Source of the DNA: Actinomycetota bacterium | Lineage (GTDB): Bacteria > Actinomycetota > UBA4738 > HRBIN12 | Assembly (NCBI GenBank): GCA_040902755.1 | Contig: JBBDWS010000005.1 | Span: 20,585 to 53,523 of the forward strand | Length of the DNA: 32,939 bases | Reading direction: 5' to 3' | Program-made: the position numbers and the translations under genes | Notes under the pieces: model-generated | What the model saw: only the letters and a program-made list of their open reading frames with translations | What the model was told of the DNA's origin: nothing | Database searches by the model: none | In this document: in pieces, positions 32,576 through 32,939 of the stretch | How positions within the stretch are numbered: the first letter of the stretch is position 1 | How the letters are laid out: each line of letters begins with the position of its first letter

Positions 32576-32605
32576 TTGAGGGGAATCCGCTCCAGGAGGT
32601 AGCAT
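32576..32605 (+). promoter_or_regulatory. Putative sigma-70 promoter TTGAGG-N18-TAGCAT for the leader peptide-tusA transcript
   Basis: -35 at 32576-81 and -10 at 32600-05. Confidence 0.55.
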
Positions 32606-32616
32606 TTGCACCTGCA

Positions 32617-32703
32617 ATGATCCGAACACGCTGCCGCGGGCTCGTGGGGGCCATGATCCCCGACCGGTGCTGCTGTCCCGAGGTGCCCGGCGACGGCCGA
32701 TAG
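32617..32703 (+). CDS. Putative cysteine-rich leader peptide (MIRTRCRGLVGAMIPDRCCCPEVPGDGR)
   Basis: 28-codon uORF with TGC-TGC-TGT at 32668-32676, between a promoter and a sulfur-carrier gene; second in-frame ATG at 32653. Confidence 0.6.
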   Translation: MIRTRCRGLVGAMIPDRCCCPEVPGDGR

Positions 32704-32759
32704 GCCGCGCCACCCGGCACCGGCCCTCGTCCACTCGGATCTCCAGGAGGTCTCCCACG

Positions 32760-32939
32760 ATGAACGTCATCACCACCGTCGACGCCCGAGGTCAGTCGTG
32801 CCCGGGGCCGCTTGTCACGCTCCACAAGGCGTTGAAGGACGCGGAACGTGGCGACCTGCTCGAACTGCTCGCGACCGATCCCGGCGCGAGATCCGACGTC
32901 CCGAGCTGGGCCAAGCTCTCGGGGAACGAGCTCCTCGAA
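32760..32939 (+). CDS. tusA: Sulfurtransferase TusA family protein (partial, runs off the window)
   Basis: MNVITTVDARGQSCPGPLV...GDLLELLATDPGARSDVPSWAKLSGNELLE with the CPxP motif; SD AGGAGG at 32745-50; absent from the ORF track because it is truncated. Confidence 0.92.
   Translation, partial: MNVITTVDARGQSCPGPLVTLHKALKDAERGDLLELLATDPGARSDVPSWAKLSGNELLE

Follow-up and report, generated by a model that had tools for sequence, protein, structure and literature searches.

Classical attenuators, such as those of the trp, his, and leu operons, combine a leader peptide, in which the regulatory codons lie, with an intrinsic terminator behind it. Arrest peptides of the TnaC, SpeFL, and SecM type are encoded by short upstream open reading frames (uORFs) that are conserved up to the stall site, and in tna it is in the spacer behind the uORF that Rho terminates transcription. 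For leader peptides that respond to cysteine, function has to our knowledge been demonstrated in mycobacteria alone, and solely through sequestration of the Shine-Dalgarno (SD) sequence. The mycobacterial examples, Ms5788A/Rv0815A of the 'Cys ribulon', are leaderless small open reading frames (sORFs) with polycysteine tracts, which according to the main text of Canestrari et al. (bioRxiv 10.1101/834739) attenuate cysteine operons. Cys leader peptides of Actinobacteria had been predicted in 2005 for Mycobacterium, P. acnes, and B. longum, upstream of the cys operon and cbs (Seliverstov et al., PMC1262725); in the sections of that paper compared here, the leader ORFs contain Cys runs and no obvious terminator, and Rho-dependent termination with pyrimidine-rich spacers is proposed. 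Here we describe a family of leader ORFs with cysteine codons from an uncultured class of Actinomycetota. We start from the member that precedes a tusA gene at the end of a 32,939-nucleotide stretch of DNA (the window) from a genome of 2.05 Mb and 69% G+C, referred to as G000.

We consider it likely that this uORF serves in cis as a translated leader peptide through which the ribosome senses the supply of cysteine, and that it attenuates the operon tusA-dsrE2. Transcription would begin at a TTGAGG/TAGCAT promoter and leave almost no 5' leader, and the ribosome would have to pass codons 19 and 20 (UGC-UGU), two invariant codons for Cys. Short of charged tRNA-Cys, it would stall there, at the foot of a hairpin that holds the stop codon of the uORF; the stall would alter the fate of the RNA downstream, and tusA-dsrE2 would be expressed. 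When cysteine is plentiful, the ribosome would reach the stop and the operon would stay attenuated. In sister leaders before other sulfur operons the output would run mostly through an intrinsic terminator, and a palindromic operator would add repression at initiation. The case is built on comparison among genomes, which brought out the conservation of the ORF, its coding signature and Cys codons, the hairpin, the terminators of the sister leaders, and the gene content of the loci. The elements of the tusA leader, in window coordinates, are as follows.

32576..32581, + strand: -35 box TTGAGG; a TTGnnn hexamer stands at equal distance in the tusA leaders of relatives
32600..32605, + strand: -10 box TAGCAT, 18 nt from the -35 box; TAGGAT, TAGCAT, or TAGTAT is kept in register across leaders of the tusA class
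32606..32617, no strand assigned: 12-bp palindrome TTGCACCTGCAA (TTGCAnnTGCAA), candidate repressor operator over the transcription start, sharing its final A with the start codon ATG of the uORF
32617 (ATG) to 32701-32703 (TAG), + strand: leader ORF (uORF) of 28 codons, MIRTRCRGLVGAMIPDRCCCPEVPGDGR followed by stop, taken from the sequence, the ORF list, and relatives
32617..32679, + strand: sensor core, codons 1-21; T4, R5, G8, V10, M13, I14, P15, R17, and C19 invariant, C20 near-invariant
32668..32676, + strand: Cys codons 18-20, TGC TGC TGT; the conserved pair is codons 19 and 20
32682..32721, + strand: stop-codon hairpin with outer stem GGUGCC/GGCACC plus inner stems; the UAG at 32701-32703 lies at the apical loop, in both the minimum free energy (MFE) and the centroid fold
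32704..32745, + strand: C-rich, G-poor spacer 3' of the uORF, including the 3' arm of the hairpin, from the base composition of tusA-class spacers
32745..32750, + strand: SD sequence of tusA, AGGAGG, kept in alignment A1
32760..32939, + strand: first 60 codons of tusA, Pfam PF01206, 83.8 bits

A sequence-only reading of the window had proposed a Cys-Cys-Cys leader peptide and an RNA switch upstream of tusA. A check against the sequence found all of its coordinates exact (promoter boxes, uORF, Cys codons, and the 56 nt from the uORF stop to the tusA ATG at 32760), and the segments from which it built the switch are all present: CCGGTGCTG at 32664-72, GGTGCC at 32682-87, CGGCACCGG at 32715-23, GATCTC-cag-GAGGTC at 32738-52, GATCCGA at 32619-25, and TCGGATC at 32735-41. 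The Pfam match bears out its naming of the downstream gene. The window ends inside tusA, at the end of contig C5, from which a unique overlap of 55 bp, typical of an assembly k-mer, leads to contig C134; the join is backed by tusA-dsrE2 synteny in relatives. The genes past 32939, which that reading had left to be identified, are the end of tusA (75 aa in total) and then a gene for a 203-aa DsrE2-type protein (PF13686, 147 bits). As tusA is followed by dsrE2 and the gene beyond is convergent, the operon is uORF-tusA-dsrE2; the tusA-dsrE2 pair is kept in relatives.

The uORF has much in common with the mycobacterial sORFs, as the main text of 10.1101/834739 presents them. Both are unannotated short ORFs with consecutive Cys codons before cysteine or sulfur operons of Actinomycetota, both occur at several independent loci per genome and so form a regulon, and the uORF of the tusA class, like the sORFs, lacks an SD and starts close to the promoter. 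The targets also overlap, with a thiosulfate sulfurtransferase following Ms5788A and a rhodanese following the uORF at some of our loci. Unlike the sORFs, which end in a Cys tract of up to eight codons, the uORF has two fixed Cys codons and about 18 preceding residues that are kept across all loci and the whole class. Pairing between Cys codons and SD, a defining feature in that account, is not conserved here, and most sister leaders differ further in their intrinsic terminators and in uORFs that are SD-led and start with GTG, TTG, or CTG. TusA and DsrE go unnamed in that main text, and our peptides are set apart from Ms5788A, Ms4533A, and Rv2334A by description and not by sequence comparison. 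The leaders of PMC1262725, in the sections compared, present the same situation as the tusA leader, namely Cys codons, no terminator, and a Rho-type spacer; they concern other taxa and genes, and a conserved core, terminator-bearing sisters, and an operator are not described there. We suggest that the tusA leader works like the known actinobacterial Cys leader peptides, and that what is new lies in the long conserved peptide, the terminators of its sisters, and the target genes.

Conservation and coding signature of the leader ORF

A Cys triplet alone is not significant, because six-frame translation of the genome contains 116 runs of at least three Cys codons; the uORF stands above chance because it is conserved among relatives. 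Orthology was examined by a route blind to the uORF, in which loci were found through DsrE2 and the region 5' of tusA was then inspected. A uORF with in-frame Cys-Cys was present in 25 of the 28 tusA-holding loci, equal to 24 of 27 relatives, so that the alignment of tusA upstream regions, named by the sequence-only reading as a check, came out in favour of its Cys codons. The three loci without a uORF are distant paralogues with 40-46% TusA identity. Unpublished genomes, namely G011 (L009), G029 (L031), G069 (L041), G111-113, G169, G177, G178, G197-199, G224, G250, and G284, with G503 in the phylum sample only, were included in the DsrE2 search and in the orthology, core-pattern, phylum-sample, and Cys-blind tallies; without L009 and L031 the count among relatives is 22 of 25. 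L009, L031, and L041 also entered the operon tally, the 141 cores, and the stall model described below, and were kept out of alignments A1-A5 and of the operator, hairpin, competing-helix, 5'-3' pairing, spacer, covariation, terminator, freed-arm, start-codon, and dN/dS counts.

The peptide is near-identical within the family and recognisable across the order, with M-I-R-T-R-C-R-G-L-V-G-A-M-I-P-D-R-C-C-C-P as its form and variants such as MICTREAGTVAAMIPDRLCCP. A DNA pattern for the core M-I-P-x-R-x-C-C matched 238 of the 294 genomes of the class ('order' and 'class' denote the same 294 genomes), mostly two or three times per genome, and the reversed-pattern control matched none. In an even sample of the phylum, the same pattern matched 26 of 32 genomes of the class and 6 of 369 outside it, zero of the latter being true family members (control, 5). 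A wider scan of contigs matched at least 120 stretches, of which 80 were listed, and offers no basis for absence elsewhere; among the matches listed, nearly all came from metagenome-assembled genomes (MAGs) labelled 'Actinomycetota bacterium' or 'uncultured Actinomycetes'. Three matches from other phyla that we examined (L102, L121, L126) were chance matches. A profile search of 1.84 billion representative proteins recovered 63 small predicted proteins with the motif, and the uORF peptide matched no family in Pfam or NCBIfam (the latter searched with six members at E up to 10). In two public MAGs, L068 and L169, the tail of the leader ORF lacks a stop and the frame stays open over 170 and 330 codons; these long frames are probably an assembly or frame artefact, or else a decayed leader.

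The coding character of the uORF was analysed over 141 unique cores of 63 nt. The first codon is ATG in 91, GTG in 31, TTG in 14, and CTG in 5, which amounts to a start-codon signature because its second and third positions are invariant while the first varies; the ten codons 5' of the core carry no frame signal. Residues T4, R5, G8, V10, P15, and R17 are unchanging, and their third codon positions have an entropy of 1.3-1.8 bits. Nine residues are invariant over 46 diverse members. Over codons 2-21, the Nei-Gojobori dN/dS amounts to 0.26 when all cores are taken together; the tusA class has 0.37 with a dS of 0.57, and the rhodanese class 0.16 with a dS close to 1.0, much as in the full set (0.99). 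No Watson-Crick covariation between core columns was found among the cores.

The criteria for family membership (T4, R5, G8, V10, and the search patterns) fix some of these columns by construction, which counts against our explanation. A second pattern, blind to cysteine, was therefore run, with T4 to R17 specified and codons 18-21 left free. It matched 223 of the 294 genomes (control, 0), and all of the roughly 150 matches listed had at least two Cys codons at codons 18-21 when counted by eye. By the same count, about 116 read C19-C20, 31 read C19-x-C21 with Gly or Ala as x, two read C18-C19 followed by stop, and one was shifted by one codon. Judging from these matches, the invariant feature is the two Cys codons, and the third Cys of the window uORF is a subtype trait. 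Thus, of the Cys triplet to which the sequence-only reading had pointed, two codons are invariant and the run of three is not. The window uORF has one additional Cys codon, at 32632-34.

The choice of Cys codons is nearly as constant as the residues. Codon 19 is TGC in 137 and codon 20 is TGT in 135 of the 141 cores; in the long ORFs of the genome the Cys codons number 1308 TGT versus 4832 TGC, so TGT is the minor one. This TGC-TGT bias is present in all operon classes, and one subtype has the U base-paired within a hairpin. A rare, wobble-read codon would sharpen a starvation sensor, as rare leucine codons reportedly do in the leu leader; the choice of UGC-UGU would otherwise go unexplained. 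The tail of the uORF 3' of Cys20 varies in both length and sequence. Two leaders (G084:C45:6793-6846 and G085:C161:3531-3584) have their stop directly after Cys-Cys, ending in MIPDRCC, and therefore no residue of the peptide past the cysteines is needed.

Together, these comparisons support the uORF as a real and probably translated Cys-codon leader peptide between a conserved promoter and tusA. It is barely credible that the ORF is incidental to a non-coding element of RNA or DNA, such as a riboswitch or a protein-binding site. Such an element would account for the constraint on nucleotides seen in the minor codon TGT at position 20, and for the conserved DNA palindrome next to the uORF. It would not lead one to expect free third positions, a first codon that is always NTG, a core devoid of covariation, or the lack of any Rfam match in the leader at E up to 10.

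Sister leaders and a candidate palindromic operator

Genomes of the class hold two to four paralogous copies of the uORF, each before a different sulfur operon. The families downstream of the copies are TusA/DrsE_2, rhodanese, PAPS_reduct, NIR_SIR, and Pro_CA. Among the 175 pattern matches in the loci examined, tusA follows 74 and a two-domain rhodanese of the thiosulfate-sulfurtransferase type follows 65; further genes headed by a uORF encode PAPS reductase, a ferredoxin-type sulfite reductase, a protein resembling beta-carbonic anhydrase (CA), and, once, a DUF3303 protein. The sister uORFs are mostly SD-led (53 of 55 rhodanese leaders), with GTG, TTG, or CTG starts. The recurrence of one peptide before other sulfur-assimilation operons fits the cysteine-responsive attenuation that the sequence-only reading had put forward by analogy with mycobacteria.

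The second member in G000 lies on contig C91 at about 456-660 (L192:456-660), before sirA-cysH. Its peptide begins VIRTRIAGQVAAMIPARICGC and reads VIRTRIAGQVAAMIPARICGCSMTPVAACGDEVRVRR in full, up to the stop, with Cys-Gly-Cys in place of Cys-Cys. An intrinsic terminator at L192:594-615, followed by TTCCATTTCC, was confirmed by terminator scan. Such terminators, each a GC-rich hairpin with a U-rich tail that starts 22-32 nt past the uORF stop, were found 3' of the uORF in 17 of 23 sirA, cysH, CA, and DUF3303 leaders; the rhodanese class has them in 25 of 54 leaders and the tusA class in 1 of 67. The terminator-bearing sisters look like classical transcription attenuators, an architecture shared by the sirA, cysH, and many of the rhodanese members, the C91 leader included. 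The family departs from the classical type in that its tusA member lacks a terminator, cysteine is the amino acid sensed, and residues other than the regulatory ones are conserved.

With these sisters in view, a free-standing small Cys protein that is encoded upstream by chance and serves as sulfur acceptor, metal binder, or cofactor of a regulator becomes a very improbable explanation of the uORF. It would agree with conservation at the level of amino acids and with the fact that gene callers predicted such ORFs in public data. It has to contend with two to four paralogues per genome, each tied to a different sulfur operon, with a variable C-terminus and two copies that end right after Cys-Cys, with terminators at a fixed 22-32 nt past the stop, and with the lack of a Pfam or NCBIfam match. 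The precursor of a peptide that the ribosome makes and that is modified after translation (RiPP) was also considered and rejected: no maturation genes lie beside the uORF at the loci examined, and multiple copies stand before metabolic operons.

The uORF family thus constitutes a predicted class-wide cysteine/sulfur attenuation regulon. The family itself was detected in 223-238 of 294 species genomes, according to the pattern used; if the prediction is right, sulfur assimilation throughout an uncultured class of soil Actinomycetota obeys a single principle. It would reach a new target, the TusA-DsrE2 sulfur carriers, which are poorly understood and would be tied by it to cysteine and thiosulfate assimilation. 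The regulon would also combine two architectures, cysteine attenuators with intrinsic terminators beside others that have none.

A second layer of control probably acts on the same promoters. The motif TGCAnnTGC occurs in 64 of 69 tusA leaders, 1-2 nt 5' of the ATG. The palindrome lies 3' of the -10 box in the tusA, sirA, and cysH leaders, and between the -35 and -10 boxes in many rhodanese promoters; because its position shifts within promoters, it appears to act as DNA. G000 has three sites against 0.37 expected (C91:421 and C111:3704 besides the one in the window), and the near-complete relatives G003 and G088 have six each, against 0 and 1 in the control. In these two relatives (L194-L205) the sites belong to tusA-dsrE2, a rhodanese, a single-domain rhodanese, a JAB/ThiF pair, and a gene for a Fur-family regulator. 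Each of the three genomes examined has the palindrome before its Fur-family gene, and the product of this gene is therefore the obvious candidate for the repressor; in G000 the gene lies on contig C111, about 33 nt downstream of the site at C111:3704. We conclude that the palindrome is probably bound by a Fur-family repressor, and the site before the regulator's own gene suggests an autoregulated Fur-family repressor of the sulfur regulon, a regulator previously undescribed. The half-site of the palindrome resembles the Nur box of Streptomyces.

Proposed output of the tusA leader and possible role of the peptide

In leaders of the tusA class the uORF starts with ATG in 67 of 67 cases, lacks an SD, and begins 11-12 nt 3' of the -10 box, which implies a transcript with a 5' leader of a few nucleotides at most. 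As RNAalifold gave no useful consensus for two tusA sub-alignments, pairs were counted for helices that we named ourselves. In the subtype of the window, the stop-codon hairpin with its GGUGCC/GGCACC stem and a 9-bp inner stem was paired in 81.4% of cells, compared with 32-48% when the partner was slid. Seven of its pairs had changed on both sides, a level reached by 0 of 500 shuffles, and the inner stem shows compensatory changes. In the other subtype (A2), the codons for Cys19-Cys20-Pro21 themselves form the 5' arm of a hairpin and pair with a nearby GGGACRG; 86.2% of cells are paired, with little covariation.

The sequence-only reading had assigned a different output to this RNA. In its scheme, the Cys region and GGUGCC compete for CGGCACCGG, and pairing of the 5' end of the uORF with TCGGATC frees the tusA SD from a local hairpin. 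Every segment is present in the window, the MFE fold of the window leader contains GGUGCC/GGCACC as well as GAUCCGA/UCGGAUC, and the mycobacterial Ms5788A, according to the main text of 10.1101/834739, acts through SD sequestration. Of the covarying stems expected by that reading, the GGUGCC/GGCACC hairpin was found, with its compensatory changes, and the competing pairing CCGGUGC:GCACCGG was not: the latter is paired in 76.7% of cells versus 76.3% after shuffling (152 of 500 shuffles), shows no covariation, and has its central pair broken in 16 of 33 sequences. The pairing between GAUCCGA and UCGGAUC reaches at least 6 bp in only 11 of 67 tusA leaders, with a mean longest run of 4.34 against 3.87 in shuffles. 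The SD hairpin is not conserved, and even the closest relative, L004, lacks a perfect version. Finally, in a simple thermodynamic fold with nt 42-70 of the leader forced unpaired, our model of stalling at Cys19/20, the probability that the tusA SD is unpaired moved from 0.30 to 0.36, leaving SD accessibility practically unaltered. An SD switch of this design is thus improbable for the tusA leader.

The terminator is absent from the tusA leader and its spacer is C-rich and G-poor, and for these reasons Rho-dependent attenuation is the leading candidate, and our best guess, for the output device. The spacers of the tusA class average 50% C and 22% G; C-minus-G exceeds 0.2 in 62 of 67, compared with a 95th percentile of 0.18 and a 99th of 0.24 in 50-nt windows of the genome. 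Most tusA leaders surpass even the latter, a composition that a Rho loading site would be expected to have. The same spacer lends itself to a response of opposite sign, which we regard as unlikely, in which translation of the uORF shields the spacer from Rho and stalling lowers tusA-dsrE2, so that cysteine-derived sulfur is spared. In favour of such a reversal, the tusA class alone lacks terminators (1 of 67), it alone has a strongly C-rich spacer, and it alone has a uORF start that is SD-less and always ATG (67 of 67); moreover, masking of the spacer is beyond a ribosome that has stalled at codons 19-20. On the other side, tusA shares its promoter operator with the assimilation genes, which argues for co-regulation in the same direction, and TusA, DsrE, and rhodanese plausibly cooperate in the assimilation of thiosulfate or persulfide.

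Several observations weigh against the proposed attenuation by a stalled ribosome. Stalled at codons 19-20, that ribosome would leave the C-rich spacer uncovered, and its position does not explain a block of Rho. In comparison with shuffles the leader is not unusually stable (z = -0.64), the stall model raised SD exposure by more than 0.2 in only 9 of 69 leaders, and the 3' arm of the hairpin, once freed, found no downstream partner better than in shuffled sequence. The sister leaders show modest complementarity for an antiterminator (mean z = -1.2, with 3 of 17 below -2). Four runs of RNA libraries yielded contigs that are fragments of relatives, with no RNA ends. The tallies, moreover, count 15 unpublished genomes among the 294. 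We regard the sensor part of the tusA leader as well supported by its sequence conservation; the stalling, the cysteine response, the direction of that response, and the role of Rho are inferred. One 152-nt contig of the RNA libraries (X23, record 13) spans the part of a relative's uORF that corresponds to 32643-32677, and gives no starts, ends, or strand.

The conservation of the peptide beyond its Cys codons brings an old question directly within reach of tests, namely whether leaders that sense amino acids also use arrest by the nascent chain. We tentatively put forward, as an extension of cysteine attenuation that does not exclude it, the possibility that the uORF encodes an arrest peptide: the conserved residues T4, R5, G8, V10, M13-I14-P15, and R17 would engage the exit tunnel, the nascent chain would govern the stall at Cys19-Cys20, and besides the charging of tRNA-Cys a small molecule (free cysteine, sulfide, or persulfide) would perhaps be sensed. 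The nine residues invariant in 46 diverse members speak for such a role, given that synonymous sites are near saturation (dS 0.99). The conservation spans paralogous leaders of at least five operon types, ends right after Cys20 where the variable tail begins, is not accounted for by RNA pairing, and is kept by 63 representatives of the library of 1.84 billion proteins. An interaction with the ribosome is also one reading of conserved non-Cys residues given in the main text of 10.1101/834739. Against arrest, plain starvation sensing requires no such peptide, and recent spread by duplication, combined with another constraint such as initiation on a near-leaderless mRNA or a function in trans, offers an alternative account of the conserved residues.

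The uORF resembles TnaC, SpeFL, and SecM-type arrest peptides in that its amino acid sequence is conserved up to the candidate stall site. It differs from them in that the putative stall would fall at sense (Cys) codons, and the peptide bears no likeness to RAPP or TnaC motifs. A word search of open papers returned no cysteine arrest peptide and no Cys uORF before tusA or dsrE2. With the same reserve, the 20-residue core M-I-R-T-R-x-x-G-x-V-G-x-M-I-P-x-R-x-C-C might be a modular, peptide-encoded arrest sensor of cysteine or sulfur status within the ribosome, joined to interchangeable platforms (terminator, Rho-type spacer, or stop-codon hairpin) before at least five operon types. Were this true, the family would count as the first regulon of arrest peptides for a pathway of amino-acid biosynthesis, and its swapping of platforms would resemble a riboswitch aptamer coupled to different expression platforms. 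The family, of roughly 400 members, supplies 82 natural variants of the peptide and several output devices.

The tusA leader occupies a divergent intergenic region of 248 nt. A promoter and terminator consensus scan of 32300-32939 reported nothing; the -35 and -10 boxes match 8 of 12 consensus positions by hand count, which is under the threshold of the scan. In Rfam, searched at E up to 10, no family matched within the leader, and the sole match in 32300-32939 was a sub-threshold hairpin-ribozyme, with 18.4 bits where the gathering score is 65, which lies outside the leader at 32485-32531. Elsewhere in G000, contig C11:5899-8064 carries two tusA paralogues and a dsrE2 paralogue (48-52% identity), at which the core pattern matched no family uORF. 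The divergent neighbour at 31061-32512 (- strand), as read from the ORF list, encodes a long and probably secreted protein rich in repeats, many of them of the GxGxD type (calcium-binding, RTX-like), which begins with a signal-like segment at its N-terminus.

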